Assembly (NCBI GenBank): GCA_964354495.1
Contig: CAYHAA010000010.1
Location: forward strand, 60,001-92,000
DNA: 32,000 nt
From: an uncultured archaeon
GTDB taxonomy: Archaea > Asgardarchaeota > Thorarchaeia > Thorarchaeales > Thorarchaeaceae
Direction of reading: 5' to 3'
Position numbers and translations under genes: made by a program. This document shows positions 2,412 through 19,181 of this stretch, piece after piece. Position 1 is the first letter of the stretch. Each line of letters begins with the position of its first letter. The notes beneath the pieces are model-generated. The model made no database searches. It was not told the DNA's origin and saw only the letters and a list, made by a program, of their open reading frames with translations.

Positions 2412-2416
2412 AATCC

Positions 2417-3682
2417 ATGGGCAGAACTCTGGCTGAGAAACTGCTAGCAAGCCATACAGATGATGGAAAGGCCATAGCTGGAGACATCGTTGAAGCGCAC
2501 GTGGACCTCCTGATGGTGCACGAGGTTCTGGGCTCCAGAATCATTCCAATCCTAAAAGAGATGGACTTCAAGAGAGTCTGGGACCCTCAGAAGATCATTG
2601 TGGTCAATGACCACTGGGCACCCGCATCTGACATCAATAGTGCTGAGATTCATCGCAGAAACCGCAACTTTGTTCACGAACAGGATATCACTAATTTCTG
2701 TGATGTCGATTGTGGAATATCTCACCAAGTTCTCCCCGAGAAGGGGCTTGTCGCACCCGGAGACCTGATAATCGGGAGCGACTCTCATTCAACGACCTAC
2801 GGTGCATTCAACGCATTCTCTACAGGTCTCGCGGCTACTGACTGTGCGCTCATTTTGGCAACAGGTATGTCATGGTTCATGGTTCCCGACTCGATTCGCA
2901 TTGAAGTGAGAGGGCAACTACCCAAGATGGTCATGAGCAAGGACCTCATCTTGAGAGTTCTCAGAGATCTTGGTCCCGATGGTGCGAACTACAGATCGAT
3001 TGAATTCCATGGTCCAACAGTAGATACAATGGACGTAGGACCCCGAATGACAATGTGCAACATGGTTGTTGAGGCAGGGGCAAAGTGCTCGCCGATGATG
3101 GTGAACCGTTTCGTGGATTCATGGATGAGGAATGTCGCGCCCGGACGAAGATGGACTGCCACTAGACCAGATGACAGCGCAGAATACGTCGAGAATCTTG
3201 TCTACGATATTGAAAAGGAGCCACTTGGTCCAATGGTCGCGATACCTCATAGCCCTACGAATGGTCAATCCGTTGCTGAGGTCACCGGTGTGCCAATTGA
3301 TCAAGCTTTCATCGGATCCTGCACAAATGGGAGAATAGAGGACTTGGAGATAGCGGCAAGGATATTGAAAGGCAAGAAGATCAGAAACGGGGTACGTCTT
3401 ATCATCACACCTGCCAGCAAAGAAACCTACATGCATGCTCTGCACGAGGGACTTATCGACATCTTCATCGATGCAGGAGGTATTGTCACCAACTCCACCT
3501 GCGGAGCATGCGTTGGAGGACATCTTGGAGTGCTCGGTGCAGGTGAAGTATGCATCTCAAGTACTAATCGGAACTTCCGTGGGAGGATGGGACACAAGGA
3601 CGCATCAATCTACCTTGCATCGCCGGCCACAGTCGCTGCGAGTGCACTCGAGGGAGCAATAATAGATCCGAGGAAGGTGTGA
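2417..3682 (+). CDS. leuC: 3-isopropylmalate dehydratase/homoaconitase large subunit (archaeal LeuC/HacA type)
   Basis: DHWAP, GISHQV, GSDSHSTTYGA, FIGSCTNGR, CGACVGG (Fe-S Cys ligands), STNRNFRGRMG, YLASPATVAASA. The ORF track starts at 2408; ATG at 2417 after GAGGTG is the likelier start. Confidence 0.93.
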   Translation: MGRTLAEKLLASHTDDGKAIAGDIVEAHVDLLMVHEVLGSRIIPILKEMDFKRVWDPQKIIVVNDHWAPASDINSAEIHRRNRNFVHEQDITNFCDVDCGISHQVLPEKGLVAPGDLIIGSDSHSTTYGAFNAFSTGLAATDCALILATGMSWFMVPDSIRIEVRGQLPKMVMSKDLILRVLRDLGPDGANYRSIEFHGPTVDTMDVGPRMTMCNMVVEAGAKCSPMMVNRFVDSWMRNVAPGRRWTATRPDDSAEYVENLVYDIEKEPLGPMVAIPHSPTNGQSVAEVTGVPIDQAFIGSCTNGRIEDLEIAARILKGKKIRNGVRLIITPASKETYMHALHEGLIDIFIDAGGIVTNSTCGACVGGHLGVLGAGEVCISSTNRNFRGRMGHKDASIYLASPATVAASALEGAIIDPRKV

Positions 3683-3685
3683 CAC

Positions 3686-4198
3686 TTGACAAGAGACCTT
3701 GCGAACATCACGGGGAGAGCATGGGTATTTGGAAAGGACATTGACACAGACCAGATTATACAGGGCCAATATCTCACCATTCTGGACTATGCTGAGATGG
3801 CCAAGCACACATTCGAGATCCCTCGCCCGCTGTTTGTCTCGAAGGTGAAGAAGAACGATATAGTGATAGCTGGACGCAATTTCGGAGGGGGCTCATCTCG
3901 AGAAGAGGCTCCAAGGGTCCTCCTTGAGTCGGGGATTGGTTGTGTGATTGCAGAGTCTTTTGCACGCATCTTCTACCGCAATGGCTTCAATGTCGGTCTT
4001 CCCCTCCTCATCATCCAAAACGCGGCCAAGTTAGTAAGTGATGGAGAATCCGTGATAGTGAATCTGATCGAGGGCACAGTCACCATCCGTCGGAGCGGTG
4101 ACGTGATTCACGGCAAACCTCTGACAGAGAGAATCCTGAACCTCTTGAGTGCAGGCGGTGCAGTCCAGTGGTATAGAAAGACAGCTGGAAAACGCTAA
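3686..4198 (+). CDS. leuD: 3-isopropylmalate dehydratase/homoaconitase small subunit
   Basis: FGKDIDTDQII, AGRNFGGGSSREEAP, AESFARIFYRNGFNVGLP; starts 3 nt after the leuC stop. Confidence 0.93.
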   Translation: MTRDLANITGRAWVFGKDIDTDQIIQGQYLTILDYAEMAKHTFEIPRPLFVSKVKKNDIVIAGRNFGGGSSREEAPRVLLESGIGCVIAESFARIFYRNGFNVGLPLLIIQNAAKLVSDGESVIVNLIEGTVTIRRSGDVIHGKPLTERILNLLSAGGAVQWYRKTAGKR

Positions 4199-4249: not shown

Positions 4250-6034
4250 ATGAATGCGCTACTATTCCTTCTGATTTCTCTCATTGCACATGCAATCCCA
4301 ATGCCGTTTTCAAGGCAATACAGGAAACCAAGCAGTATGATCAAATGGTTGCCCATGCGTTTCATATGGGGAACAGTCGCTTGGGTCATCATCTGCCTGA
4401 TTTTTGGTTCAGTACTTCCTTGGGCAATCCTTGGACTGATCATGAGCCTAGCAGCTCTTATGATGATCACGAGCGGATTTCGCCCCGGTGGTCGCTTTGA
4501 GGATATGCTAGAGGGCATCCGAGTTCCCTATGCGTGCATTGGTCTAATTATTCTGATAACAGTACCAACGTTCGGAGGGATAATTGGATGGACCTCAGGA
4601 CTTGCAAATGCACAATATTTCGACTCCATGATCACAGAAACCGACGCTCCGCTCTTCACGAACCCCATCCCGGATAGAATGGTCAGGCTCGTCACAGAAG
4701 AATATGCGACGTATGTTGCAAGCCAGCACCTGTCACCCTTTGGATCCAACAACATAGTGGCAGCGGCACACATCACAATTAAGAACGGGACACTTGTGTG
4801 GGTGTGTACGATAGTATCAACGAATGTTCTTGCTGAGAACTATGTCAAGGGCTTCATTGTTATCGATGCAAACGACCCGCAAACAGTCGAGCCATATCCA
4901 ATCACTTCAACAACCATCCCAGTGGGAGAGGGTCTCTTCTGGGACAGAAACATCCAGTTCGGGAACTACTTGAATGACATTACTTCGTTGTATGAATATG
5001 CATATCCTACATGGGACCCCTCTGGTAATCTTGTCTATGTTCAGACACGAACGCCTCTTGGCTTCGATTTCGTAGAGGCTGCAACTGGTCCAATTATCTA
5101 TGCGGAGAATGGCTCCGTCTTTGCGTATGATACAATCGCAGATACACCAAGCTGGGTCACTCAGGCATACTCTGAGGAATGGCTTGAACGGCAGATAACA
5201 AGATGGGGTAGCTTCAGAAGAGGAAGCGGATTCGACCTCTTTGCTGGTGGACTCTTGTGGTTTATCGCACCATCGAACGATAGGCTCGAGATGACAGAGG
5301 ATACGAGATACATACTGAATCCAGACACGGAACGAATCGAGGCTTTCTTAGCTGTGAATCCAGTGAATGCACCCAATACTCTCGCAGGAGTGCTAAGAGC
5401 AACACAGAATGAGGTGTTTTATCACGACCTTAGCGGAGAAGGGTACGTCAGCGGTTCAACTGCAGTAGCTAATGTAATTGCCGCGATAGGGCCACCTGCG
5501 AGCGGCAACTATTATGGGGCAATGCCGCTTCTCTACCCTGTCGTCATCAATTCAACAGTCACAAAATGGACATGGTACACACCCATCTATTGGACTGATG
5601 CGTACTACTCCGAGGATCTTGGAGACTACGTTGCCTCCAACATGAGACTTCATGCTCTTGGTATGGTCGATGCATCGAACATAGATCGATACGTCTGGCT
5701 TCCGCTAGGTGGAGCATTATCAGGTGAGAATCTCGTACATCAGGTCAGAACCGATTACGTCGCTCTTCTTGGTGGCGAAATCGAAGAGGAGCCCTCAGAC
5801 ACCTTCATCATCACTGCAAATGTGACAGGTACGACCTCTTTTGTACAAAATAGTCAGCAGCATGTACTGTTGCGGACAGACAACGTCACCTATGAGTTCT
5901 TGGAGGGTGCACAGGCTTGGATGAATACGACGGACTGGTACACTCTTCTGTTCCTCGATGTGGGCGATAACTTCACAGCAACAGTCCTCCAAGTCGGAGA
6001 TGTCTACAGAATCATCGCAATCGTCAAGAACTAG
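4250..6034 (+). CDS. Uncharacterised membrane protein: N-terminal TM helices plus a large extracytoplasmic beta-rich domain
   Basis: 594-aa ORF; 3-4 hydrophobic segments in the first ~115 aa, then a soluble region with several NxS/T sequons (NGT, NGS, NST, NVT, NTT, NFT). Confidence 0.8.
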   Translation: MNALLFLLISLIAHAIPMPFSRQYRKPSSMIKWLPMRFIWGTVAWVIICLIFGSVLPWAILGLIMSLAALMMITSGFRPGGRFEDMLEGIRVPYACIGLIILITVPTFGGIIGWTSGLANAQYFDSMITETDAPLFTNPIPDRMVRLVTEEYATYVASQHLSPFGSNNIVAAAHITIKNGTLVWVCTIVSTNVLAENYVKGFIVIDANDPQTVEPYPITSTTIPVGEGLFWDRNIQFGNYLNDITSLYEYAYPTWDPSGNLVYVQTRTPLGFDFVEAATGPIIYAENGSVFAYDTIADTPSWVTQAYSEEWLERQITRWGSFRRGSGFDLFAGGLLWFIAPSNDRLEMTEDTRYILNPDTERIEAFLAVNPVNAPNTLAGVLRATQNEVFYHDLSGEGYVSGSTAVANVIAAIGPPASGNYYGAMPLLYPVVINSTVTKWTWYTPIYWTDAYYSEDLGDYVASNMRLHALGMVDASNIDRYVWLPLGGALSGENLVHQVRTDYVALLGGEIEEEPSDTFIITANVTGTTSFVQNSQQHVLLRTDNVTYEFLEGAQAWMNTTDWYTLLFLDVGDNFTATVLQVGDVYRIIAIVKN

Positions 6035-6081: not shown

Positions 6082-7251
6082 CTACTTTGGGAAGAACTCC
6101 TTGAACACTTCACGCTGAATGAGGAATCGAAGAATCTCGGCTGTTCCACCGCCGATCGTCATCAGACGCGCGTCTCTCATGAAGCGTTCAACAGGATAGT
6201 CAGTCGTGTAGCCCATACCACCTAGAATTTGGAGCGCATCATTAGTGACTTGAACAGCAGCCTCGGTTGTATAGAGCTTTGCAATTGAGGCAGCCTTAGT
6301 AATCTTCTGACCCCGGTCGTACATCCTTGCAGCTGTGAGCGTGAGAGCACGGCCTGCCTCCAGTTTCATTGCCATGTCTGCGATCTTGAAACTTACTCCC
6401 TCAAACTCATTGATAGGCCGGCCAAATTGGTGGCGCTCAGTTGAGTACTTGACAGCAATCTCATAGGGTGTTCTGCCATAGCCAATAGCCTCTCCGGCAA
6501 TCGCAGTCCTCTCAGAGTCCAGCTCGTCCATCAGAATATGGAATCCCTGACCAGGTTCCCCGAGTATCATATTACCTGGAACTCGAACATCCTCTAGTTT
6601 CAACCACGAAACCCGAGCAGACTTCATTCCGAGCAAGTCATGGTCTTTGACAACGGTGAATCCCTCACTCTTGGTGTCGACGATGAAAGCAGACATGCCA
6701 TCCTTAGCCTTCACAGCGGGGTCAGTGATAGCAAACGCACACATGTAGTCGGCTTGGCTTCCATTTGTGATGAAGCGCTTTTCGCCATTGAGGATCCAGC
6801 CATCACCGTCCCTCTTCGCTCGGGTCTTCATTCCTGCAGTATCAGACCCCACATCAGGTTCAGTGATACCAATGCATCCAATCTTATCTCCTGCAACAAC
6901 AGGCCTGAGATACTTCCTCTTCTGTTCAGGCGTTCCAAACCTTTCCACAGGCATGCCATAGAGAGTTGTAGAGGCCATGCGTGCCATGTCCAGGCCGGCA
7001 TTTGTGGCTGAGATCTCTTCAGCAACGATAATCTCATACGACAGGCCACGTTTTGTCCCACCTACTGATTTGTCATGGTGTACTCCCATGTAACCCGCCT
7101 TGCCAATTTTCCTCAGCAGTTCCCTTGGATAGGGGCCCTTGTCAATCTCATCCGCAATAGGAGCAATCTCCCTATCACAGAAAGCGCGGACTTCTCTCCG
7201 AAACTCGACCTCATCATCGGTCCAAAGTGCATTCGATAGGTGCTCAACCAT
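6082..7251 (-). CDS. Acyl-CoA dehydrogenase, IVD/LCAD-type catalytic Glu placement
   Basis: IGITEPDVGSD, WILNGEKRFITNG, ERHQFGRPI, ALQILGGMGY, RDARLMTIGGGTAEI. The ORF track starts at GTG 7284; ATG at 7251 is the likelier start. Confidence 0.93.
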   Translation of the reverse strand: MVEHLSNALWTDDEVEFRREVRAFCDREIAPIADEIDKGPYPRELLRKIGKAGYMGVHHDKSVGGTKRGLSYEIIVAEEISATNAGLDMARMASTTLYGMPVERFGTPEQKRKYLRPVVAGDKIGCIGITEPDVGSDTAGMKTRAKRDGDGWILNGEKRFITNGSQADYMCAFAITDPAVKAKDGMSAFIVDTKSEGFTVVKDHDLLGMKSARVSWLKLEDVRVPGNMILGEPGQGFHILMDELDSERTAIAGEAIGYGRTPYEIAVKYSTERHQFGRPINEFEGVSFKIADMAMKLEAGRALTLTAARMYDRGQKITKAASIAKLYTTEAAVQVTNDALQILGGMGYTTDYPVERFMRDARLMTIGGGTAEILRFLIQREVFKEFFPK

Positions 7252-7321
7252 TCCTGAAACCCGTGCCTTCTGCCGAGAACTCACTTAAATCACTAACTGG
7301 AAGCGCCGATCAGCATGTCAA

Positions 7322-7645
7322 TCATGAGAGTAGCCTGAAACGAAGTAGATTCGATCTGTCAGGAGCGACTTCGACAGGATCTCCAATCTCAGGCTTTGAA
7401 TCATCTTTGCTGCCAGCTAAGCATAATACGACTGCGCCTTGGTCCAGCTCCACCAGAGCCATCGTCAACGGGGGAGTGAATCCTTCGGGAGGCATCTCTA
7501 GAGTTGTGTGGCTGAGAATGGTGCCCTCGCCGTTGATCTTCTGTTTGACCATCTCTCCTGCGGCCTTTCCGCAATATGGACAGATGTCACGTGGCGGAAC
7601 GATTGTTCGAGAACAGCGCTTGCAATGAGAGGCTTGAATCTTCAT
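7322..7645 (-). CDS. DUF35 family Zn-ribbon/OB-fold protein (thiolase partner)
   Basis: CKRC...PPRDICPYC Zn ribbon followed by GTILSHT...ALVELDQG OB-fold pattern; 107 aa. Confidence 0.88.
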   Translation of the reverse strand: MKIQASHCKRCSRTIVPPRDICPYCGKAAGEMVKQKINGEGTILSHTTLEMPPEGFTPPLTMALVELDQGAVVLCLAGSKDDSKPEIGDPVEVAPDRSNLLRFRLLS

Positions 7646-7723: not shown

Positions 7724-10700
7724 TCATTCAGGTTCCATAAATGATTCTAGGAGGCTAATCAGTTCCTTCTTCGAGAGACGTTTCAGTTCGTCAGGGCTGA
7801 CAGTAGCTTTGAAATCTGAAGGAAGAAGCTCGACTAGTGTCTTCTTGTCCAGTTTTGATAGCTCCTTAATGCCGAGTGGAACATCTGAAACGCCAGCTTC
7901 CGCAGAGCGGGTTATTGGTTCAGGAAGCAGCTCCTTGGAAGGAGTATATGAGTCAAGAAGTGACTGAGCCTCCTTTCGAGACATCTTTTCGAGATCCTCT
8001 TTGGCTATAGCATCTCGAATCTCAGGAGGTAGTCTATCCAGGATTTCCTGCTTAGTCAGTGGTTTCTCCACTTCTATCGCAGGCATTGATTCAGGTAATG
8101 TCGTAGTCGCGGGAGCTGTTAATGCCTCAATGGTCTCCATCTCAACGTCTTCTGCCAACAGAGGTTCTTTCCTGACAGGTTCGGTCGGTTGGACCTCCTC
8201 AGCAACATGCAGCTCATCAGCAGACGTGCTAGTTGTCTCTATTTCCTCGATAGTCGGGGCCTCAGCCGCCCGGGGTACTTCAAGAGGTTCATGCACCTCT
8301 GAAACAGGGAGTTCGGCAGGCGGATAAGTGTCTGGCTCAGGTTCAGCTGGTTCAGTGCTAGTTTCTTCAATATGTGAATCAGCAGGAGCAGTGGCCGTTT
8401 CATCATATATTCCGAAGTCGGAGGGCTCAATATCGGTGATTCCTGCGCTGACTGCACCGTGTCTTCTGCGGGAAGCAATGAGTGCAACACCAATCAAACC
8501 GACACCCACACCGCCGCCAATCAGTAGGAGGGTCATCGTATCTGGGGCAAATCCCGGAACAGCAACCCATTCAATCTCTACGCTCAAATTGGCTGAATCG
8601 AGAGCGGAGATTCCATACAGGCTGTCTGATATGCTCTCAACAGAGAAAGTGTAGTTGCCTGCAGTGTTCCTAGTGACGCTAACGCTCCAATAGGCACCTG
8701 CTGAGTTGTATGTCATTGCATTGGTTGCACCAGTCAGAGATACCGAGCCACTAGTAAACGGACTCTCATCAAACTCGTATACGAGAGTGACTCGTATCTC
8801 TGTTGCAACTCCGACATCTTGGGAGAATGACGTCGCAGTGATTGAGGTCACCTGAACTCTGTCCCAGATGATCACCAGATCAGCAGCTGATTGTACGTAA
8901 CTGCTGATTTCACCAAGTGATGCAGAGATGATGCTGAATGAATAACTTCCTACGGTACTCTGAGTGACTGATGCCACATAGACACCACTGGATGGGATAC
9001 AAGTGATGTCGCCTGTCATCACGGCCACAACACCATTTGGTACGGTTACACCTGCGTTCTCAAGTCTTGCACTCCATTGGACCAAAGCCGTATCACCCAT
9101 ACCCAATCTGCTATGGTCAACAGATACTGAGTAGAATTCAATTCGGTCCCAATAGACAGTGACTTCATTCGAATCCATATTGAATTCAGTTATACCGTAG
9201 AGTGCGGCATTGCAGAGAGTAAGAAGGTCAAACGATACAGCTTGGTAGGTAGCCTCGGTGACATAGGTTTCCCATAGGCCGGACCCGACATGAGTCAGTG
9301 CATGACCTTCAATCGCAAATGTGCCGGAAGTGACAGACAACGCATCGTACTCATACTGTAGACCGACTATGACTCTCACATTGTCGCCGGGGTCATGGTA
9401 CAGCTCGTCAGCTGTGATTGAAGTGACTAGTACTCGGTCCCAAATGCAGTAGACAACATCATTGGAGAGGATGGCGGTGATTCCGAATGAATCATCCGCT
9501 GCAGAGAGGACAGTGTAGCCTTGTATCTGCGGCGTAGCGTACGAGAAGTAAGTGTTGTTCAGCGCGAGAGCTCCATCAAATGTAGCACCATCATATGCAT
9601 AGATGGCGCTCACGTAGATCCCCGTTGCGTTGGCTCCAACGTTGACTCGCATATCAGTCGGATTGGTCATGGTGATGATCAGAGCATCCCAGATTGCCTG
9701 CACATCAGTTGTAGAATCAGACCATTCTGTCAGCCCATGTATTGACTCTACAACTGAAACAACAGTGAATCCTGCAGATATCGGAACAGATGAGGTCTCC
9801 TGCCATCGCCAGTACGAGCCACCGGCGTTCCAGATCAAGGTCCTTGATCCATTGAGCTGGATCAGCAATCCACTCTGAATCTCAGTTCCGTTGTATTCGT
9901 ATCGTGCTCTCCACCATACTTCACAGTAGGAATTGATGTTGATTCGCAAGTCGACGACTCCAGCCAGATAGATCTCAATCCTGTCAGTGATGAAGGTGTC
10001 AGTGGGGCTGGTCGAGAAGTACAAGTCAGTACTCCCTGAGCCAGCACCCTCAGCCACAGTCTTGATGGTGTAGGTGTTCAACCTGATGGAGGCAGAGGAT
10101 CCAATGCTGGAGATACTGAAACTGCCAGCAGCCAGGTCACCATTCCAACTGCCTGCAACATCATGGATAATCCAGACATCAGTCTCATTTGCGAGAGGGC
10201 TAAGACTGGAGCCATAGTATGTGATGGACCCGGACACGACAAGGTCGGTGGTATTCACATCACCATGGTCGTCAGACAATGATGGTGTAACTGAATAATC
10301 AAGACGTGTTTCCACATCCCAGTTCGTCTCGTAGGAGTCTGAATCTGAATCAGTGCCATCGAAGACAGACTGCTCCACATCAGAATCAGCAGTGTGTTCA
10401 TGATCCCAACCTATTTTCAGATACCAGGTGATACTCAGCGTATTCCCAGCTCCGACTGCATCGGACATGCTGCCGATGACTACAACTGCGCCACCCACTT
10501 CGACAGAGAATGTATCGGTCGAATATGTGTATCGCACTCTCCAATATAGAGTAACTCGATCGTCAGAGTAGAGCGATAACTCGACATAGCTAATGTCTGC
10601 AAAGCCATCCGGGTCACTGACAGATGTAATGATGATGTAGTATCGATACCGAGCATATAGGCGGTCCGTATCATCTCCGTTAGTGAGTGTTGGAGCAGAA

Positions 10701-13700
10701 TCATTCATTGGAGGATTGTTGGGTTCAGAGGACCAGGTAACCAGCCAAGCGTTCGTAGAGAATGCTGTTATACTATAGTTCGATTCGAATGAGATACTAC
10801 GCGTTGTGTAGCTGTAGGAGATGTTGTACCCAACATCAACGAAGAGACTGACATTAGCACCAATGAATGAGTGCCACCATGTTGAGTTTCTCTGTACGAC
10901 TATCTGATATGATGTACAGGCGGCGTCATCATAATCAAAGATGACTGTAAGCGAGAAATTAGCTTGGACACCGTTCAAGGGAGTGGAATCATCAACTCCA
11001 ATCGTAATGACAAGCTGATCCCATATGCAATATGTCGCATCATTGGCTGAGATCGCTCTGATTCCATGAGTTCCACCACTTGCTGAGTCCACAGTGTACC
11101 ACTGAATCTGAGCTGTGCCGTAAGTGAACTGAGTGTTGTTAAGAATCAAAACACCGTCGAAAACAGAGCCATCATAGTCATGCACAGCACTAGTAACGAT
11201 ACCTGACGCATTAGTGTTGACATTGATACGTTGATCTGTGGAGTCACTGATGGTTATCGTAAGCGAGTCCCAGATACAATATGTTGCATCATTGGCTGAG
11301 ATCGCTGTGATACCATGAGTTCCACCACTCGCTGATAGGACTGTATACCACTGAATCTGTGCTGTTGAATACGTGAATTGTGTATTATTGAGAGTGAGAG
11401 ATCCATCAAAAGCCGACCCATCATAGTTGTAGACGGCGGCCACTATAATTCCAGAGGCATTTGTATTGATGTCAATGTGCTGGTCAAGTGGTTCTGTGAT
11501 GACTATCCTCAACGAGTCCCAGATACAGTAGGTCACATCGTTGTTGGAGATTGCAGTGATTCCAAAGGCACCACCACTCGCAGAACCCAGTGTGTACCAC
11601 TGGATCTGAGCTGTGCCATATGAGAACTGACTGTTGTTTAAGGTCAGAACACCATCGAAAACAGAGCCATCATAGTCGTAGATGGCGCTCACGATGATTC
11701 CTGTTGCATTCGCATTGATGTTTATTCGTTGGTCCGAAGGGTCTGTCAGTGATACAGTGAGTGAATCCCAGATGCAATAGGTCACATCATTCGCAGATAC
11801 TGCTGTAATCCCGTAGGTTCCTTCACTAACGCCCTGCACAGTGTACCACTGAATCTGAGCTGTGCTATAAGCAAACAGTGTGTTGTTCAGCGTAAGGATT
11901 CCATCGAATTCAGCGCCATCGTAGTCATAGACCGCTGTGATGACAATTCCAGATGCGTTTGTATTGATGTTTATTCGCTGGTCCAAGGGATCTGTAATCG
12001 AAATTGTCAGCGAGTCCCAGATGCAGTAGGTCACATCATTTGTCGAGATTGCTGTAATCCCATGAGTTCCACCTGAGACTGACTGTACTGTGTAAGCCTG
12101 CCTCTGTGAAATGCTGTAGGTAAATTGCGTGTTGTTGAGGGTTAGAGTGCCATCGAACGCAGCTCCATCATAATCGTAGGTTGCAGTCAAAATGATTCCC
12201 GTTGCATTCGCATTGACATTGATTCGCTGATCCAAGGGGGCGGTGAGGACAATAGTCAGTGAGTCCCAGATGCAGTAGGTCACATCATTTGTCGAGATTG
12301 CCGTAATCCCATGAGTCCCACCTGAAACTGATTGCACGGTGTAGCCCTGTTTCTGGGCTATGGCATATGCGAATTGAGTATTATTGAGGGTGAATGTGCC
12401 GTCGAATGCAGCACCATCATAGTCGTATATTACTGTTACCACGACGGCGGATGCATTGCTGCTTATATTGATTCGTTGATCAGTAGGGTCTGTAATGGCG
12501 ATAGTAAGTGAGTCCCAAATACAGTAGGTAACATCATTTGCTGAGATTGCTGTGATTCCATAAGTTCCCCCACTCACACCCTGAACAGTGTACCACTGAA
12601 TCTGAGCAGTAGCATAGACGAATTGCGTGTTGTTGAGTATGAGCATTCCGTCAAACGGTGCAGAGTCATAGTCATGGACTGCAGAAACAACTATTCCTGA
12701 AGCATTCGTATTGATGTTGATGCGCCGGTCCAGAGGGTCAGTAATCGTGATTGTAAGCGAGTCCCAGATGCAATAAGACACATCGTTACTTGAGATAGTA
12801 GTGATGCCATAGACCCCGCCGCTCGCACTCTGGACACTATACCACTGAATTTGAACACTGCTGTAGATGAATAGAGTGTTGTTCAGTGTCAATATACCAT
12901 CGAAAGTAGAGTCGTCATACTCATAGACAGCAGAAACGATTATTCCGGATGCGTTCGTATTGATATTGATACGTTGGTCGATGGGGTCAGTCATTATGAT
13001 TCTCAAAGAGTCCCAGATGCACCAAGTCATGTCGTTGGCCGATATTGCTGTGATTCCATAGGCCCCGCCACTCACGCTCTGAACAGTGTACCACTGGATT
13101 TGAGCAAGGGCATAGCTGAATTGAGTGTTATTGAGGCCGACTGTACCATCGAAGGCAGAACCATCATAGTCGTAGAATGCAGTCACGACTATCCCGGACG
13201 CATTCGTATTGACGTTGATACGCTGGTCAGAAGGATCAGTGACTACAACCGTGAGTGAGTCCCAAATACAATATGCTGCTTCATCAATGGAGACTGCTGT
13301 TATACCGAAGGCGCCACCACTCACTGAGCTCACCCGGTACCATTGAATCTGAGCCGTGGCGTAGCTGAATTGCGTGTTGTTCAGAGAGAGGACTCCATCA
13401 AATGCTGAGCCATCGTAATCATAGATGGCACTGATGACAATGCCAGAGGCGTTGGTGTTGATGTTAATTCGCTGATCTGACGGATCAGTGATTGTGATTG
13501 TGAGCGAGTCCCATATGCAATATGTGACGTCGTTGCTGGAAATCAGTGTAATTCCATAGGTATCACCTGAAGCCGACTGCACAGTGTAACCTTGCCTCTG
13601 AGCTACAGCGTACACGAATTGGGTGCTGTTAATGGTCAACGCACCATCGTACGTGGTGCCATCATAGTCGTATACCGCAGTAACTACAATACCTGACGCA

Positions 13701-16700
13701 TTGGTGTTGATGTTGATTCTTTGGTCAGCAGGATCTGTAATGATTATGGTCAGTGAGTCCCAGATGCAGTAGGTCGCGTCATTCACTGATATTGCAGTGA
13801 TTCCATATGCTCCGCCACTGACACCCTGAACAGTGTACCATTGAATCTGGGCTGCAGCATATGCGAATTGAGTGTTGTTTAGAGCTAGGACACCATCGAA
13901 GGCAGAACCATCATAATCATAAACTGCGGAAACTACGATTCCTGATGCGTTTGCATTGATATTGATTCGCTGATCGCCTGGATCGGTTATGGTTATTGAA
14001 ACAGCGTCCCAGATGCACCATGTCACATCGTTTGCTGAGATTGCAGTAATACCATATGTTCCACCACTTGCAGAGAGAGCAGTATACCACTGAATCTGAG
14101 CGGTGGAGTAGGCAAACTGCGTGTTATTCAAGCCGAGCGTGCCGTCAAACGGTGTGGAATCATAGTCGTAGGTAGCGCCGACTACTATCCCTGATGCATT
14201 CGCACCAATATTGATTCTCTGGTCCAACGGATTAGTGATTGTTACAGTCAGCGAGTCCCAGATACAGAAGGTCATGTCATTTGTCGATATGGCCGATATA
14301 CCGTATGATCCACTGCTTATCGAAGGAATTGTGTAGTACTGTATTTGCGCGGCCATGTAGGTGAATTGAGTATTGTTCAGAGTCAGGATACCGTCGAAGG
14401 CGGAGCCATCATAGTCGTAGATAGCAGAAACGATAATCCCGGATGCATTTGTATTGACATTGATGCGCTGGTCGAATGGGTCAGTGATTGTAATCGTGAC
14501 AGAGTCCCAGATACACCAAGTGACATCGTTTGCCGAGATGGCAGTGATGCCATAGGTTCCGCCACTGGCAGACATGACTGTATACCACTGAATCTGGGCC
14601 GTGGCGTAAGAGAACAGCGTGTTGTTCAGTGTCAGGGTACCGTCAAACGGCGAGGAGTCATAGTTGTAGACTGCAGTAACCACAACTCCTGATGCGTTCG
14701 CGTTGATGTTGATACGCTGATCTGATGGCTCGGTGACTGCTATTGTTAGCGAGTCCCAGATACAATATGTCATGTCATTGGTAGAGATTGCAGTGATGCC
14801 GAACGCTCCGCCACTCACTGAGCCGACTCGATACCATTGAATCTGGGCTGTTCCGTAGCTGAACTGCGTGTTGTTCAATGTGAGAATTCCGTCGAATAAC
14901 GAGCCATCATAGTCATAGACCACGCTCACAACAATGCCTGATGCATTGGCATTGATGTTGATTCGCTGATCCAACGGGTCGGAAACTGATATTGTAAGCG
15001 AGTCCCAGATGCAATACGTAACGTCATTGCTGGAGATCACGGTGATGCCGTATGTACCACCACTAGCAGATAGAACAGTGTACCACTGGATCTGAGCGGC
15101 AGGATAGGAGAACTGCGTGTTGTTGAGTGCGAGCGTTCCATCAAAAGGCGCGGAGTCATAGTTGTAGACTGCTGTGACTACTATTCCCGATGCATTCGTA
15201 TTGATGTTGATGCGTTGGTCGAATGGGTCAGTGATTGTAATTGTCAACGAGTCCCAGATGCAGTATGTTTCGTCGTTGACTCCAATGAGCGACACTCCAT
15301 GGACTCCTCCAGAGGCAGTCGATACTTCATATCCTCTTATTCCAACCGTGCCATAGTTGAAGACCGTATCATTAAGATTCAGAGTTCCATCGAAGCTCGT
15401 GTCGTCGTAGTCATAGATTGCTGATGCAACAATGCCTGTTGCGTTGGCACCTGTGTCAATCCTCTGATCGATCGGATCGGTGAGCGTTATGATTAATCGA
15501 TCGGCAATATAGGTGTCAGTTGCACTGCTCGTATAGAATAAATCAGTGCCTCCTGCACCAGCTCCCTCCTCAACCACCTTGACCGTGTATGTGTCTAGAC
15601 CTACTAGATTGTCAGCGTAGCAAGTGACATTAAAAGCCCCTGAGGTGGGAGTGAGATCGCTCCAAGGCCCAACGTTAGTCCCATATTCTGAGGCAGAAAC
15701 CCAAATATCGACAGCTGTTGAAGAGGGCGCAACATTCACAGAACCGTAGTAGATGACAGTTCCTGTCAGTGAGAATGATCCATCTACATTGCCTCTATCT
15801 GGAGTCCCAGAGCTGTCGCTGACATGTGGCAAAACAGAGTATTCCAGCCTTGTTTCAATGTCCCAGTCAACTTCATACCATGTCGTTGTTGATTCGTTCT
15901 GAGCGTCTTCGACATAGCATCTTGCATCTATGTCAGTAGAATCAGGGAAGTCCCAATCAATTGTGAAGAAGAAGGTGGCATCAATATCATTGCCGCTCTT
16001 GGTTGCCGATGAACTTCCTGTATTCAATGTGACAAAGTTGCCACCATCGAATTGCTCTGAGAACACGCTTGTGTCCTCATCATATCTGAATCTACAGAAC
16101 TCTGTTGCCCGGGTATCGTCCCAAAGCCCAATTTCCAGAAAGTCGATGTCTGCGAATCCGTTCTGGTCGGATACGTAAACACTGACCTGATACTCTGCGT
16201 ATTGAGCGTACATGTTATCAGTATCGGTAGGGTTGTTCAGATAGGGTATCTGATCAATCAGGGGAGTATAGCTTGGGGTCCACGTATGCAATAGGACAGC
16301 ATCAATCTCCCATGTGTCCTGTGTTGTATCTCCTGTTTCAGTTCCGCCAAGAAATCTGACTTCGAACGCCGAACTGGTCAGGTACGAAGAAACACTGACA
16401 TTGTTCCACTGGTCCGGAGTGAGGTCCGCGAGGGCATTGATCCAAGTCCCGCTCCAGACATCAATCTTGATGTCTTCAGTCGGCCAGCCACCCCCTGTGA
16501 CAGGGTAGATGCATAAGTATTCGTAGGTTTCATCGTAGTCTGCAGCAGTCCATCCAACCTCCAAGTCAAGTCCATAGCTCCATGATGAAGGAGTCCAACA
16601 ATGAAGTAAGATACCCTCTATCTGCCAAGAACCCTGATAGGCATCATCGGTCTGCATGCTGTCTACGAATCTGATTTCGAAGGATGACGTAGTGAGATAG

Positions 16701-17773
16701 CTAGTAACCGATACATTATTCCAGCCTGCCTGGACACCGGTGATGACAGTGACCCATGCTGCACCATCCCAGACATCGACATTGAGAGTTTCAGAATTCT
16801 GTATGCCGCCATAGATACATAGCGCTTCATTCGATTCTGAATATTGGGCACTGGTCCAGCCAACCTCGAGGTCCAGCTCGTGGTTCAGATTATTGATATT
16901 CGCATAGAGCCTGCGCCAAGTATATGTGCCGTTAGTTGCATCAGTCGGGTCCGTTGGCGATGCATAGCTATTCGTCGTATCGGACTTACTACTTGCGCCA
17001 GTAGTAGACGTATAGTACAGTCTCATCGAGTTTGAAGCTGGGATTATCAGTATCCAGTATGTATTCCCACTAACTACTATCGGACGTGAGCCAGCTGCAA
17101 AGGTCAATGTCTTATCGCCGGCTGTCGCAGATACGCCGACTGCAGAGCTAACTCCGTTTGGCAAGATGTACCCAGACGAGTTTGTGATGATCCCCTTCGT
17201 GTTTATTGTACCCGTTGAGGACCTTCCGTAAAACACGACGCTGGCAACTTCCCCCGTGCTACTTGCAGTGTAGACACCACCATACATATAGTTCGCGCTT
17301 ACTGAAACATAGCTGGCACCACTGGCGGAACTTCTGCCAAATGTGCTGGTTCCAGTATTTGTATCAGCCTCGGTTAGAGTGTCATAAGAGCCATCGAAGT
17401 CCTGCATTTCAGCAAAAGAAGAGTGTGCACCTATGTCCGTGGGCGCATGAAGGTTGGATGCTTGATCCACGAAGTCTTCATAATTAGTGCCAGCATAGCT
17501 TATGTTTCCCTCGGTCATCTGATCGTAATTAGCACCATAGTCTTGAAGATACGAAAAGACACTATGCGAACCCCTATCACTAGGAGGATGAAGATTTGAG
17601 CTCTGATCAACAATGTCCTCAGCATTATCGCCTATTCCTGATACAGTATAGGAATTTGGCTCAGGAATCCCTCTCAATCCTCTAGGGGGTGATTCAATAT
17701 CCACAATTGGACTAGCCAATATAATACCAAGGAATGTTAGAAATAGGGCAAGTGTGAGGACACGTCTTCCCAT
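7724..17773 (-). CDS. Giant (3349 aa) repeat-rich cell-surface type I membrane protein, putative adhesin/receptor
   Basis: Uninterrupted 10,050-bp ORF. N-terminal basic plus hydrophobic signal (MGRRVLTLALFLTFLGIILAS), S/T/D/N-rich repeated beta modules, a single TM (TLLLIGGGVGVGLIGVALIA, ~8474-8536) followed by SRRRH, and an acidic Pro-rich tail. Confidence 0.93.
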   Translation of the reverse strand: MGRRVLTLALFLTFLGIILASPIVDIESPPRGLRGIPEPNSYTVSGIGDNAEDIVDQSSNLHPPSDRGSHSVFSYLQDYGANYDQMTEGNISYAGTNYEDFVDQASNLHAPTDIGAHSSFAEMQDFDGSYDTLTEADTNTGTSTFGRSSASGASYVSVSANYMYGGVYTASSTGEVASVVFYGRSSTGTINTKGIITNSSGYILPNGVSSAVGVSATAGDKTLTFAAGSRPIVVSGNTYWILIIPASNSMRLYYTSTTGASSKSDTTNSYASPTDPTDATNGTYTWRRLYANINNLNHELDLEVGWTSAQYSESNEALCIYGGIQNSETLNVDVWDGAAWVTVITGVQAGWNNVSVTSYLTTSSFEIRFVDSMQTDDAYQGSWQIEGILLHCWTPSSWSYGLDLEVGWTAADYDETYEYLCIYPVTGGGWPTEDIKIDVWSGTWINALADLTPDQWNNVSVSSYLTSSAFEVRFLGGTETGDTTQDTWEIDAVLLHTWTPSYTPLIDQIPYLNNPTDTDNMYAQYAEYQVSVYVSDQNGFADIDFLEIGLWDDTRATEFCRFRYDEDTSVFSEQFDGGNFVTLNTGSSSATKSGNDIDATFFFTIDWDFPDSTDIDARCYVEDAQNESTTTWYEVDWDIETRLEYSVLPHVSDSSGTPDRGNVDGSFSLTGTVIYYGSVNVAPSSTAVDIWVSASEYGTNVGPWSDLTPTSGAFNVTCYADNLVGLDTYTVKVVEEGAGAGGTDLFYTSSATDTYIADRLIITLTDPIDQRIDTGANATGIVASAIYDYDDTSFDGTLNLNDTVFNYGTVGIRGYEVSTASGGVHGVSLIGVNDETYCIWDSLTITITDPFDQRININTNASGIVVTAVYNYDSAPFDGTLALNNTQFSYPAAQIQWYTVLSASGGTYGITVISSNDVTYCIWDSLTISVSDPLDQRININANASGIVVSVVYDYDGSLFDGILTLNNTQFSYGTAQIQWYRVGSVSGGAFGITAISTNDMTYCIWDSLTIAVTEPSDQRININANASGVVVTAVYNYDSSPFDGTLTLNNTLFSYATAQIQWYTVMSASGGTYGITAISANDVTWCIWDSVTITITDPFDQRINVNTNASGIIVSAIYDYDGSAFDGILTLNNTQFTYMAAQIQYYTIPSISSGSYGISAISTNDMTFCIWDSLTVTITNPLDQRINIGANASGIVVGATYDYDSTPFDGTLGLNNTQFAYSTAQIQWYTALSASGGTYGITAISANDVTWCIWDAVSITITDPGDQRININANASGIVVSAVYDYDGSAFDGVLALNNTQFAYAAAQIQWYTVQGVSGGAYGITAISVNDATYCIWDSLTIIITDPADQRININTNASGIVVTAVYDYDGTTYDGALTINSTQFVYAVAQRQGYTVQSASGDTYGITLISSNDVTYCIWDSLTITITDPSDQRININTNASGIVISAIYDYDGSAFDGVLSLNNTQFSYATAQIQWYRVSSVSGGAFGITAVSIDEAAYCIWDSLTVVVTDPSDQRINVNTNASGIVVTAFYDYDGSAFDGTVGLNNTQFSYALAQIQWYTVQSVSGGAYGITAISANDMTWCIWDSLRIIMTDPIDQRININTNASGIIVSAVYEYDDSTFDGILTLNNTLFIYSSVQIQWYSVQSASGGVYGITTISSNDVSYCIWDSLTITITDPLDRRININTNASGIVVSAVHDYDSAPFDGMLILNNTQFVYATAQIQWYTVQGVSGGTYGITAISANDVTYCIWDSLTIAITDPTDQRINISSNASAVVVTVIYDYDGAAFDGTFTLNNTQFAYAIAQKQGYTVQSVSGGTHGITAISTNDVTYCIWDSLTIVLTAPLDQRINVNANATGIILTATYDYDGAAFDGTLTLNNTQFTYSISQRQAYTVQSVSGGTHGITAISTNDVTYCIWDSLTISITDPLDQRININTNASGIVITAVYDYDGAEFDGILTLNNTLFAYSTAQIQWYTVQGVSEGTYGITAVSANDVTYCIWDSLTVSLTDPSDQRININANATGIIVSAIYDYDGSVFDGVLTLNNSQFSYGTAQIQWYTLGSASGGAFGITAISNNDVTYCIWDSLRIVITEPLDQHIDINTNASGIIVAAVYNYDGSAFDGSLTLNNTQFTYSTAQIQWYTVLSASGGTHGITAISANDATYCIWDSLTITISDSTDQRINVNTNASGIVTSAVHDYDGSVFDGVLILNNTQFTYGTAQIQWYTVDSASGGTHGIRAISANDATYCIWDQLVITIGVDDSTPLNGVQANFSLTVIFDYDDAACTSYQIVVQRNSTWWHSFIGANVSLFVDVGYNISYSYTTRSISFESNYSITAFSTNAWLVTWSSEPNNPPMNDSAPTLTNGDDTDRLYARYRYYIIITSVSDPDGFADISYVELSLYSDDRVTLYWRVRYTYSTDTFSVEVGGAVVVIGSMSDAVGAGNTLSITWYLKIGWDHEHTADSDVEQSVFDGTDSDSDSYETNWDVETRLDYSVTPSLSDDHGDVNTTDLVVSGSITYYGSSLSPLANETDVWIIHDVAGSWNGDLAAGSFSISSIGSSASIRLNTYTIKTVAEGAGSGSTDLYFSTSPTDTFITDRIEIYLAGVVDLRININSYCEVWWRARYEYNGTEIQSGLLIQLNGSRTLIWNAGGSYWRWQETSSVPISAGFTVVSVVESIHGLTEWSDSTTDVQAIWDALIITMTNPTDMRVNVGANATGIYVSAIYAYDGATFDGALALNNTYFSYATPQIQGYTVLSAADDSFGITAILSNDVVYCIWDRVLVTSITADELYHDPGDNVRVIVGLQYEYDALSVTSGTFAIEGHALTHVGSGLWETYVTEATYQAVSFDLLTLCNAALYGITEFNMDSNEVTVYWDRIEFYSVSVDHSRLGMGDTALVQWSARLENAGVTVPNGVVAVMTGDITCIPSSGVYVASVTQSTVGSYSFSIISASLGEISSYVQSAADLVIIWDRVQVTSITATSFSQDVGVATEIRVTLVYEFDESPFTSGSVSLTGATNAMTYNSAGAYWSVSVTRNTAGNYTFSVESISDSLYGISALDSANLSVEIEWVAVPGFAPDTMTLLLIGGGVGVGLIGVALIASRRRHGAVSAGITDIEPSDFGIYDETATAPADSHIEETSTEPAEPEPDTYPPAELPVSEVHEPLEVPRAAEAPTIEEIETTSTSADELHVAEEVQPTEPVRKEPLLAEDVEMETIEALTAPATTTLPESMPAIEVEKPLTKQEILDRLPPEIRDAIAKEDLEKMSRKEAQSLLDSYTPSKELLPEPITRSAEAGVSDVPLGIKELSKLDKKTLVELLPSDFKATVSPDELKRLSKKELISLLESFMEPE
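7739..8062 (-). repeat. Two copies of a ~38-aa helical motif at the cytoplasmic C-terminus of the giant protein
   Basis: LTKQEILDRLPPEIRDAIAKEDLEKMSRKEAQSLLDSY (7946-8059) versus LDKKTLVELLPSDFKATVSPDELKRLSKKELISLLESF (7739-7852). Confidence 0.75.
9446..9694 (-). repeat. Solitary 19th copy of the 83-aa repeat
   Basis: IWDALIITMTNPTDMRVNVGANATG...LSNDVVYC; its IWD and the next IWD are exactly 249 bp apart. Confidence 0.85.
11027..15508 (-). repeat. 18 tandem copies of a 249-bp / 83-aa unit
   Basis: The IWD codons (plus strand GAGTCCCAGAT-like) recur at 15249, 15000, 14751 ... 11265, 11016, always 249 bp apart, and 4482 bp = 18 x 249. Consensus is approximately IWDSLTITITDPxDQRININTNASGIVVSAxYDYDGSAFDGxLTLNNTQFxYATAQIQWYTVxSASGGTYGITAISxNDVTYC. 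Confidence 0.97.
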
Positions 17774-18008: not shown

Positions 18009-19181
18009 CTAAGGTCGCTGAAGAATAGTCACGACGATATTGTTACCAAACCCACCAATGTTGTGAGTAAGACCAATACCCGGGTTATCTACTTGGAGCC
18101 CTTTGGGAGCCTCTCCTCTCAATTGCGTGACAATGTCGCGTATCTGAGCTACTCCAGTGGCGCCAGTGGGATGACCTCTTGCCTTGATACCACCTGTAGT
18201 GTTGACAGGCATCTCTCCCCAGACCTCCGTTAGACCCTCCTTTACCGCATGAATTGCGCTCCCACGTTCGACTAGACCAATATCCTCCATATTCACAAGT
18301 TCGAGGATGGAGAAAGCATCATGAAGCTCGCACACATCAATCTCTTGAGGACTGATACTAGCCATCTTGAAGGCTTTCTCTGCAGCTACTACTGAAGCAT
18401 CAAAAGAGGTCAGAGCAGATCGATGTTGAACAGCAAGATAGTCGGTTCCATGACCAATACCTAGGACCCGTATTGCTCTATCTGCAAGACCATGTTCTTC
18501 CATCGTGCTTTCGGACGCAACAACAATAGCTGCTGCACCATCGCTCGTAGGGCAACAATCGTACAGGGTAAGAGGGTCTGCAACAACTCTTGCTGTGTTC
18601 ACCTGTTCAATGGTGATCTCCTTTTGAAAGTGAGCCAGGGGGTTCTTCGCTCCATTTCGGTGGGCCTTCACAGGAATGAGAGAGAGTTCGTCCCGCGTCA
18701 GACCATAGTCATGCATGTACCTACGGGCAATCATAGCCGCGAGTGCAATAGGCGTGGCACCGTATCGAGTTTCGTTTTCGTAGGACATCATTTTGGCCAG
18801 AATCCCCGATGCTACCCCTCTGTCGACCTCGGACATCTTCTCCACGCCAACCACAAGAACAAGATTCGCCATGCCTGCGGCGACCAATGCGAAGGCGGAC
18901 TCGAAGGCACTCGACCCTGAGGATGGACCAGTCTCAACTCGAATAGCGCCTGCTGGAACCAATCCAAGGCGGTCCGCCAGTACAGATGAGAGATGTCCCT
19001 GGCCTACGAACTCATCGGGATTCTGGGCACCCACGACAAGACGATCGAATCGTGCCTCGACCGTTGAGGAGTCTTCCATCGCCTCAAAGGCAGCACTCTG
19101 TGCGAGATCTAGTATAGAATCATCGAGCACACCGAACCTTGTCATTCCCGCTCCAACGATATAGACAGGATCCACGATCAT
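18009..19181 (-). CDS. Thiolase-fold protein (archaeal/SCP2-like type) lacking the canonical nucleophilic Cys
   Basis: VYIVGAGMTRFG, AHRNGAKNPLAHFQ, DCCPTSDGAAA, ELHDAF, GGIKARGHPTGATG, THNIGG. The usual VExACASG motif reads VETGPSSG. Confidence 0.9.
   Translation of the reverse strand: MIVDPVYIVGAGMTRFGVLDDSILDLAQSAAFEAMEDSSTVEARFDRLVVGAQNPDEFVGQGHLSSVLADRLGLVPAGAIRVETGPSSGSSAFESAFALVAAGMANLVLVVGVEKMSEVDRGVASGILAKMMSYENETRYGATPIALAAMIARRYMHDYGLTRDELSLIPVKAHRNGAKNPLAHFQKEITIEQVNTARVVADPLTLYDCCPTSDGAAAIVVASESTMEEHGLADRAIRVLGIGHGTDYLAVQHRSALTSFDASVVAAEKAFKMASISPQEIDVCELHDAFSILELVNMEDIGLVERGSAIHAVKEGLTEVWGEMPVNTTGGIKARGHPTGATGVAQIRDIVTQLRGEAPKGLQVDNPGIGLTHNIGGFGNNIVVTILQRP

Follow-up and report, generated by a model that had tools for sequence, protein, structure and literature searches.

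The window, i.e. the whole stretch of 32,000 nucleotides that was analysed, contains on its minus strand (7724..17773) a single uninterrupted 3349-aa open reading frame (ORF) with an ATG start and no internal stops, according to the ORF list and its translation. ORF, hydropathy, repeat and self-BLAST scans bear out the description given in the earlier note, namely one ORF encoding a signal-type segment, head modules, a repeat stalk, a transmembrane (TM) helix and a tail. In 10 genomes the giant gene lies in synteny with those for DUF35 and acyl-CoA dehydrogenase, which indicates that the giant is a stable chromosomal gene. One metatranscriptome contig (n = 1, 240 nt) matches positions 8952-9190 at 95-99% identity; since such libraries may contain DNA, this match was not counted as transcription. 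The features of the gene are the following:

7724..17773 (-): coding sequence of the giant, 3349 aa, stop codon at 7724-7726 included
17708..17773 (-): MGRR and hydrophobic core, putative signal peptide or signal anchor, residues 1-22 (hydropathy 2.39 over residues 1-28)
16889..17707 (-): unique N-terminal head region, residues 23-295 (matches only itself in self-BLAST; no Pfam family)
16271..16888 (-): two duplicated head modules of ~100 aa, residues 296-501 (self-BLAST, 49% identical)
15464..16270 (-): ~260-aa module, copy 1, residues 502-770 (36-38% identity to copy 2 in self-BLAST, E 2e-45)
10982..15463 (-): stalk built of 18 in-register repeats of 83 aa (Pfam DUF7738), residues 771-2264 (Pfam, TRF, CIWD spacing)
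9938..10723 (-): ~260-aa module, copy 2, residues 2351-2612 (self-BLAST)
9422..9802 (-): extra stalk-type repeat unit, residues 2658-2784 (50-58% identical to stalk units)
8537..9406 (-): membrane-proximal, strongly diverged repeat-like modules, residues 2790-3079 (25-32% identity to stalk units)
8474..8536 (-): single TM helix, residues 3080-3100 (hydropathy 2.44)
8459..8470 (-): RRRH basic cluster on the predicted cytoplasmic side, residues 3102-3105 (translation; charge shift across the helix)
8066..8458 (-): polyacidic Pro-rich leash, residues 3106-3236 (net charge -30; variable length, 19-37% identity)
7940..8065 (-): first copy of the tail module, with four short helices in ~42 aa, residues 3237-3278 (profile match G000:C10:67940-68065, E 2.9e-16)
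7859..7939 (-): inter-module spacer, residues 3279-3305 (low model confidence, weak conservation)
7733..7858 (-): tail module copy 2, residues 3306-3347 (profile match G000:C10:67733-67858, E 7.8e-16)

The ectodomain is long, as had been claimed, and covers residues 23-3079, which corrects its length from ~3,080 to 3057 aa. Its stalk belongs to Pfam DUF7738 (4 stretches, E 1.2e-31; score 109.6 bits, cut-off 24.6). The landmark CIWD occurs 18 times at an exact spacing of 83 aa (from residue 838 to 2249) and then once more at 2776, and TRF detects a period of 249 nt over the stalk DNA (17.1 copies, 68% matches). Each translated repeat carries one Cys, that of CIWD, and most have two N-x-S/T sequons; the units are probably β-rich. 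The duplicated head modules align over residues 297-396 and 399-501, and the two copies of the ~260-aa module over residues 500-770 and 2351-2608. The membrane-proximal modules called "WDR-type" in the earlier note are weakly related, diverged copies of the stalk unit; the label corresponds to the W-D-R with which these units start and does not hold in the sense of WD40 repeats. When compared with PDB sequences by phmmer, neither the head (residues 23-840) nor the C-terminal third matched anything below E 0.2. Feature searches of the head modules in the ESM Atlas yielded weak leads, either Ig-like or unnamed (scores 0.81-0.89), and Pfam showed no cadherin or integrin family, be it at E ≤ 1 for the complete protein or at E ≤ 10 for its parts. 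Judging by its architecture, the ectodomain may have a role in adhesion, recognition or contact sensing.

A Kyte-Doolittle scan of the giant finds two hydrophobic segments only, at residues 1-28 and 3078-3102. The core of the latter (3080-3100) maps exactly to 8474-8536, where the TM helix had been placed, and is followed by S-RRRH, the proposed stop-transfer, and by the 249-aa tail. The net charge changes from -3 before the helix to +2 after it. The ectodomain contains 58 N-glycosylation sequons and 29 Cys and the tail contains none of either, and the module found at the end of the tail has further copies in a HEAT-repeat protein that is soluble and has no hydrophobic segment. The positive-inside rule, the distribution of sequons and Cys and the sharing with a soluble protein, all of them indirect indicators, thus favour an N-out/C-in orientation with a cytoplasmic tail, as the earlier note had proposed, over a C-terminus outside the cell. 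The suspicion that the host might be an Asgard archaeon is also supported, since the relatives of its HEAT protein come from metagenome-assembled genomes (MAGs) of Candidatus Thorarchaeota or from related MAGs that bear the label Promethearchaeota, Hermodarchaeota or uncultured archaeon; the top match shows 90% identity. The sequence is best explained as that of a Thorarchaeote glycoprotein with type-I membrane topology, its glycosylation being predicted from the sequons.

The tail is made up of a ~131-aa polyacidic Pro-rich leash followed by two helical mini-modules of ~42 aa that close the protein, the second of which ends 2 residues short of the C-terminus. In the AlphaFold2 (AF2) model of the tail, which spans only the last ~12 residues of the 131-aa leash, both modules are compact and helical with a pLDDT of ~88 and the spacer between them falls below 50. 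Across syntenic orthologues no other part of the C-terminal region is as well conserved as the modules (57-76% identity), whereas the leash is 19-37% identical and has indels of tens of residues. The tail is thus neither wholly disordered nor devoid of conservation. The sizeable folded intracellular part envisaged in the earlier note is reduced to the two small modules, the remainder being mostly leash with no large folded signalling domain. Architecture and topology indicators fit a receptor that would couple the outside to the inside, but in place of a signalling domain it has a leash and two mini-modules. Each module has a net charge of -1 and the leash of -30; all the tails examined are polyacidic (net charge -33 to -109, length 166-338 aa). 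The consensus of the module is roughly K-x-E-L-L-x3-P-x-E-x-R-E-x6-L-x-R-L-x-K-x-E-L-x2-L. It has no significant match to Pfam families or solved structures, so that its biochemical activity is not readable by homology; Foldseek with the tail model gave nothing in the PDB at E ≤ 0.001, and the feature search of the tail in the ESM Atlas was uninformative (best score 0.79). The "DFKA" of copy 2 recalls the villin headpiece, a likeness that was rejected as it is absent from the family consensus and no villin headpiece (VHP) model matches. Sub-threshold S_100 matches in 15 of 38 module copies were read as a shared helix of the "LSKKEL..LL" type, which is known from S100 sequences, and not as an EF-hand.

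An exhaustive search with the module profile retrieved only 71 proteins at E < 1e-3 among 1.84 billion (1.84e9) representatives. Among 400 Asgard genomes, the module is found in 82 of the 85 genomes of the host family, in the only genome of the sister family (1/1) and in none of the 313 genomes of other Asgard families. It is a portable module specific to the order Thorarchaeales. It is carried by at least two families of giant ectodomain proteins, by a handful of small membrane proteins and by a cytosolic HEAT-repeat protein, and one to three carriers were seen per genome. In the genome studied here, the module is confined to the giant (2 copies) and to a HEAT protein of 384 aa (C1:334071-335225, 3 copies); a tblastn comparison of both proteins gives E 4e-7. 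The two giant families (family A, of the DUF7738 type, and family B, of the CarboxypepD_reg/Ig type) are alignable over their last ~150-190 residues only. In every membrane carrier among the clear single-module matches, the module lies ~70-320 residues past a TM helix, the giants having one C-terminal helix, and ends 0-10 (mostly 0-8) residues from the C-terminus. Giant genes have been mentioned in Thorarchaeota MAGs, their tails not being described (Wu et al. 2022, PMC8813620). No account of the tail was found in the literature searched on Asgard surface proteins with cytoplasmic tails, DUF7738, giant or Ig-like proteins, and integrin or adhesion.

The HEAT proteins begin with a HEAT-repeat domain and further contain a polybasic patch (10-18 K/R in 25 residues) and 3-4 modules. 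Membership in the HEAT families is significant (HEAT_2 E 1.4e-11, 45 bits against 27.7; HEAT E 5e-10), the AF2 model shows paired helices over residues 1-183, in agreement with a predicted α-solenoid, and its Foldseek neighbours are HEAT-repeat proteins. The domain is present in single copy in 80 of the 85 host-family genomes and in the sister-family genome (1/1). The protein is also present where tail-bearing giants were not detected, for instance in the sister family, in whose single genome the module was found only in the HEAT protein; the primary function of the module is therefore independent of the giants. The neighbourhood of the gene (NfeD, Rce1-like, HEAT, vWA, amidohydrolase) is kept in 37-42 of 46 loci, and a divergently transcribed gene for an Rce1-like CPBP membrane protease adjoins it in 42 of 46. 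As all five genes of the block are syntenic throughout the family, this neighbourhood does not name any specific partner. A complex prediction for the HEAT domain (residues 1-200) with one tail module scored 0.07, which is evidence neither way.

The putative signal peptide, head, tandem-repeat stalk, heavy glycosylation potential and C-terminal anchor of the giant are all features of giant repeat-rich adhesins and other surface proteins of prokaryotes. Most often the chain of these proteins stops at the anchor or shortly past it, whereas this one continues into a predicted cytoplasmic tail of 249 aa bearing a portable module in common with a cytosolic protein. Eukaryotic type-I adhesion receptors pair with soluble adaptors, classical cadherin with catenins and integrin with talin. 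The outline of the giant is analogous to that of these receptors: tandem extracellular repeats, type-I topology indicators, a single pass and a mostly disordered acidic tail with a conserved segment that would dock to a soluble α-solenoid adaptor of the ARM/HEAT type. Nevertheless, there is no sequence relationship (no catenin or talin family was detected by Pfam in the HEAT protein or the giant), the soluble HEAT protein bears the same module as the tail of the giant, and docking and adaptor contact are hypothetical in the archaeal case.

Since the module is common to unrelated surface proteins and to the cytosolic HEAT protein, it is probably a plug tying surface proteins to the cell interior. 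The giant may reasonably be viewed as a type-I protein with a leash-borne, portable docking module that links it to a cytoplasmic partner or hub, a reading to which we give a fair measure of confidence and in which the docking nature of the module is itself inferred. Modules on their long flexible leashes would dock the giants to a cytoplasmic hub which the HEAT protein engages. Alternatively, they could dock onto the HEAT protein itself, via contacts between modules or of complementary charge, the polyacidic leashes facing the polybasic patch of the HEAT proteins. The HEAT protein, being multivalent, would then serve to bring the giants together, to position them or to retain them, and mechanical or organisational coupling appears more likely than enzymatic signalling. 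It is possible, if rather doubtful, that these components make up a cortical adaptor specific to Thorarchaeales, in which long acidic leashes would physically connect giant variable adhesins with a multivalent cytoplasmic scaffold, an Asgard archaeal counterpart in function of the outside-in linkage by cadherin-catenin or integrin-talin. In a rarer variant, the scaffold would be the nucleoid and the system the counterpart of the HeH/LEM tethers between membrane and chromatin.

Other explanations have to be weighed against docking. The position of the module, 0-8 residues from the C-terminus in the clear single-module membrane carriers, would fit a sorting or quality-control tag equally well. 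It is unlikely, however, that the module is read by a targeting, localisation or turnover machinery instead of being a permanent anchor, and just as unlikely that it delivers its carriers to a membrane region or protrusion, confines them there or marks them for a membrane protease, with the HEAT protein as soluble receptor or competitor. Its presence on sequence-unrelated ectodomains and on small membrane proteins resembles proteome-wide tags, yet one to three carriers per genome is far below the number known for these, a folded ~42-aa unit that is often duplicated contrasts with short degrons, and no recognition machinery is known. The Rce1-like protease gene beside the HEAT gene would suit such a tag, a weak point because the whole five-gene block is syntenic. 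Another view, that the tail is a passive acidic entropic bristle with a stop-transfer and terminal helices devoid of a specific partner, accounts for the fast-evolving, length-variable, low-complexity E/P-rich sequence that makes up over half of the tail. It is very improbable: the terminal modules are islands of conservation, they are common to giants with unrelated ectodomains and to a cytosolic protein, and they are kept across the whole order, which would be unexpected if they had no specific function. C-terminal sorting signals (PGF-CTERM/archaeosortase, LPXTG/sortase) are also common elements at the C-terminus of unrelated surface proteins, and the giant has, as in PGF-CTERM, a PGF before its helix: VPGF stands six residues ahead of it, an Arg cluster lies behind it, and the closest orthologue also has PGF. 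If V-P-G-F, helix and RRR formed such a signal, cleavage would leave the ectodomain on a lipid anchor and set the tail free. Nevertheless, the third orthologue lacks PGF, ~245 residues lie beyond the basic cluster where these signals end, and the conserved element of the giant is a predicted folded module ~135-245 residues past the helix on the predicted cytoplasmic side. No NCBIfam PGF-CTERM model matched at E ≤ 1 (only PVV_CTERM appeared, with 17.4 bits against a cut-off of 27), and PF09721 (exosortase/archaeosortase) had 0 matches in this 97.7%-complete genome, the control, M. jannaschii, being detected. This explanation is largely refuted and its probability is negligible.

A link between envelope and DNA deserves separate consideration, since the top structural neighbours of the predicted module are SAP, HeH, LEM and Rho-N motifs. 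These helix-extended-loop-helix folds of ~35-45 residues, in which a loop connects short helices, are often terminal and act as small docking units for DNA or proteins. The module, along with the polybasic patch of the HEAT protein and the helix-hairpin-helix (HHH) domain present in some family-B tails, would then tether the surface to the nucleoid, as HeH/LEM proteins do at the inner nuclear membrane in eukaryotes. Closest in structure comes the HeH domain at the N-terminus of Rho (Z 5.5, rmsd 2.0 Å over 44 residues), followed by SLX4, Ku70, PIAS1, other SAP domains and the LEM domains of emerin and LAP2 (Z 3-4.7); yet Z-scores under 8 may reflect a common arrangement only, and all of these (Z 3-5.5) lie within that range for small helical units. 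Likewise, 38 module copies gave a few Pfam matches (YqbF_HeH 3, Rho_N 2, FANC_SAP 2, SAP 1), but all of them are below the cut-off (best E values 0.008-0.09) and none was obtained with the whole tail. The tail of the family-B giant P0035 matches HHH_5 (E 1.9e-10), whereas Pfam finds no HHH domain in the tail of the giant studied here. The conserved polybasic patch of the HEAT protein would suit such a tether, but module and leash are acidic, the opposite of the basic surface expected of DNA-binding SAP/HeH/LEM domains, and the loop Gly typical of the SAP consensus is replaced by Pro in the module. Such a tether is therefore quite improbable.

Among the prokaryotes known, Asgard archaea are those most closely related to eukaryotes, and the connections between the surface and the interior of their cells matter for the possible origins of cell-cell contact, protrusions and engulfment-like behaviour. 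The vague "receptor-like" impression left by the giant has become a testable one, i.e. a ~42-aa, order-specific, portable and predicted cytoplasmic module whose carriers are listed. Even if there were no adaptor system, it would still be a previously undescribed protein module that marks the Thorarchaeales.

The 7724-17773 (-) region of the window is a single uninterrupted open reading frame of 3349 aa, as seen in the ORF listing and the translation. Together with a hydropathy scan of the whole protein, which detects only two hydrophobic segments, these analyses bear out all the coordinates that the earlier note gave for this giant, as well as its recognition of a giant surface protein as a whole. 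The features of the protein and its neighbours are the following:

Residues 1-28: N-terminal hydrophobic segment, with MGRR as n-region and then a hydrophobic core (hydropathy)
Residues 23-295: unique head region
Head, two duplicated modules of ~100 aa: 49% identical to each other (self-comparison)
Head, module of ~260 aa: second copy at residues 2351-2612 (self-comparison)
Residues 2790-3079: membrane-proximal stretch, related to the stalk unit but strongly diverged
Residues 3078-3102: second hydrophobic segment, core 3080-3100 = nt 8474-8536 (hydropathy)
Residues 3106-3236: leash, E/P-rich, net charge -30
Residues 3237-3278: first copy of the tail module, ~42 aa
Residues 3306-3347: second copy of the tail module, ~42 aa; the C-terminus lies 2 residues further on
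Window 7322-7645 (-) and 6082-7284 (-): neighbouring DUF35 and acyl-CoA dehydrogenase pair
Window 18009-19181 (-): neighbouring thiolase-like gene

The stalk carries 18 occurrences of a CIWD landmark spaced by exactly 83 residues, with one more at residue 2776, and its repeats match Pfam DUF7738 (E 1.2e-31). In the DNA the period is 249 nt, and since the units share only 68% matches, the repeats are old. The body of the giant groups with the giant repeat-rich surface proteins of prokaryotes. Giant genes in Thorarchaeota have been noted, their tails without description (Wu et al. 2022, PMC8813620), and literature searches turned up no account of either this tail or DUF7738. The gene lies directly upstream of the DUF35 and acyl-CoA dehydrogenase genes and this synteny is kept in ten related genomes; the giant is therefore a stable chromosomal gene, and the arrangement is old instead of a recent insertion. 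The length of the gene varies among relatives, the longest open frame reaching 4048 aa. Elsewhere in the window, the ORFs 4250-6034 (+) (594 aa) and 22477-24117 (-) (546 aa) have no match in Pfam at E<=0.001, and the latter lies within a lower-GC stretch (0.41-0.44).

All indicators point to a body outside the cell and a tail in the cytoplasm, as the earlier note had proposed. The ectodomain contains 29 cysteines and 58 N-x-S/T sequons, where shuffles give 40.5 +/- 6 sequons; neither cysteines nor sequons occur in the tail. The net charge is -3 in the 15 residues before the transmembrane helix and +2 in the 15 after it; the second hydrophobic segment is directly followed by S-RRRH, with 249 residues beyond the segment. 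Moreover, the HEAT-repeat protein that shares the tail module is soluble and lacks any hydrophobic segment. A PGF tripeptide before the helix, together with the helix and the basic cluster, recalls an archaeosortase-type signal that would lead to processing of the giant. Yet the PGF-CTERM models give no match, the tripeptide is absent from one orthologue, the basic cluster is followed by another 245 residues, and no exosortase or archaeosortase was found in the host genome (97.7% complete). We therefore reject this processing, which has very little probability.

An alignment of 17 tails was used to model the tail with AlphaFold2. Each module is predicted as four to five short helices (pLDDT ~88), separated by a spacer with pLDDT below 50. 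The modules are 57-76% identical to those of the two closest syntenic orthologues; in the same proteins identity falls to 19-37% over the leash, where indels span tens of residues. Given these predicted folds and their conservation, the tail is neither wholly disordered nor unconserved. The receptor interpretation of the earlier note is partly supported: it keeps its cytoplasmic, partly folded and conserved tail and its Asgard host, but a sizeable folded intracellular domain gives way to two small modules on what is mostly leash. A paralogous giant in the same genome (C8:25257-39257 (+); open frame of 4666 aa, stop to stop), also with DUF7738-type repeats, has a single C-terminal transmembrane helix followed by a different helical tail of ~125 aa without the module.

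The nearest predicted shapes to the module are the Rho N-terminal domain (Z 5.5) and the SAP and LEM domains (Z 3-4.7), scores in the chance range for small helical units. None of the SAP/HeH/LEM-type family models reaches its cut-off on the module which, contrary to those motifs, is acidic. Membership was consequently not assigned.

Within the host genome, the sole other carrier is a 384-aa protein (C1:334071-335225 (-), L031:9071-10225 in its locus) with three module copies behind an N-terminal HEAT-repeat domain (Pfam HEAT_2, E 1.4e-11). Its AlphaFold2 model shows the HEAT domain at 1-183, then three helical units on low-confidence linkers. These HEAT proteins have a conserved polybasic patch (10-18 K/R per 25 residues) in which K/R and Val alternate. 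The convergent neighbouring gene encodes a 366-aa vWA-domain protein (L031:7963-9063 (+)), unusually conserved across genera; the HEAT protein has diverged faster than the genes around it (43-90% identity versus 76-98%, mostly 84-98%, for the vWA protein). Of 46 Thorarchaeota loci, 37-42 keep the syntenic block NfeD, Rce1-like CPBP protease, HEAT, vWA and amidohydrolase. In one relative, the HEAT gene match (G334:C3:781027-781593) spans two TAG stops, which may reflect a pseudogene, an assembly error or recoding.

Searching 1.84 billion representative proteins with a 42-position profile built from 38 module copies retrieved only 71 matches at E<1e-3. The carriers fall into four groups:

HEAT-type proteins: 390-530 aa, 3-4 module copies
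Family-A giants (DUF7738 type): e.g. P0018, P0025, P0026, P0028
Family-B giants (CarboxypepD_reg/Ig-like domains): P0033-35, P0037, P0054, P0057, P0060
Others: fragments and a few small membrane proteins

The two giant families are alignable only in their last ~150-190 residues, corresponding to the acidic leash and the module. Wherever a membrane protein gives a clear match to a single module, this module stops within 0-10 residues (mostly 0-8) of the C-terminus and lies ~70-320 residues beyond a transmembrane helix, single and C-terminal in the giants; these tails are all polyacidic (net charge -33 to -109). In the family-B protein P0035, the helix-hairpin-helix family Pfam HHH_5 matches the cytoplasmic tail between helix and module (E 1.9e-10); P0034 has a similar-looking stretch in the equivalent position. 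No family-B homologue was matched in the host genome (tblastn, 1e-5). In another relative, an ORF (2219-4114 (-) of L082, G368:C1:1034500-1040000) joins a family-A membrane-proximal ectodomain to a mosaic tail, made up of a juxtamembrane helix resembling that of family B, a leash of acidic repeats and two divergent modules, and ending differently at the C-terminus. Such a mosaic suggests that tails are shuffled between giants.

The profile detects the module in 82 of 85 genomes of the host family, in the single genome of its sister family from the same order, where only a HEAT-type protein carries it, and in none of 313 genomes from other Asgard families. The HEAT domain is single-copy in 80/85 and 1/1 of these genomes, and outside both families it retrieves a lone weak hit of generic HEAT type. 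The named genomes that encode a relative of the HEAT protein are Candidatus Thorarchaeota MAGs, or related ones that carry the labels Promethearchaeota, Hermodarchaeota or uncultured archaeon; the top hit (isolate OWC2) has 90% identity, which confirms an Asgard host. In the simplest history, the module would have originated in, or with, the universal Thorarchaeales HEAT protein and would only later have been added at the C-terminal ends of surface proteins in the host family.

From a small conserved fold within fast-evolving linkers that is portable from one unrelated ectodomain to another, always C-terminal, and multiplied in a soluble protein, we infer a docking module. A complex prediction of the HEAT domain with one tail module gave no verdict and counts neither for nor against docking. 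The tail could instead be a sorting or turnover tag, which we consider unlikely; that it tethers nucleic acids is clearly less probable, and that it is a passive spacer marginally less so again. Under the docking hypothesis, the long flexible polyacidic leash would offer a cytoplasmic partner one or two plugs, and the multivalent HEAT protein would bind the same partner or would itself be the hub, in which case contacts could be established between modules or between the polybasic patch and the acidic leashes. In outline, the giant recalls cadherins and integrins (tandem repeats, a single membrane pass, a disordered acidic tail and an alpha-solenoid protein), without sequence relationship to them. 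The tail module is a real, conserved and undescribed cytoplasmic unit, probably of docking type, on a giant Asgard surface protein, and the HEAT protein may serve to gather, position or retain such giants.
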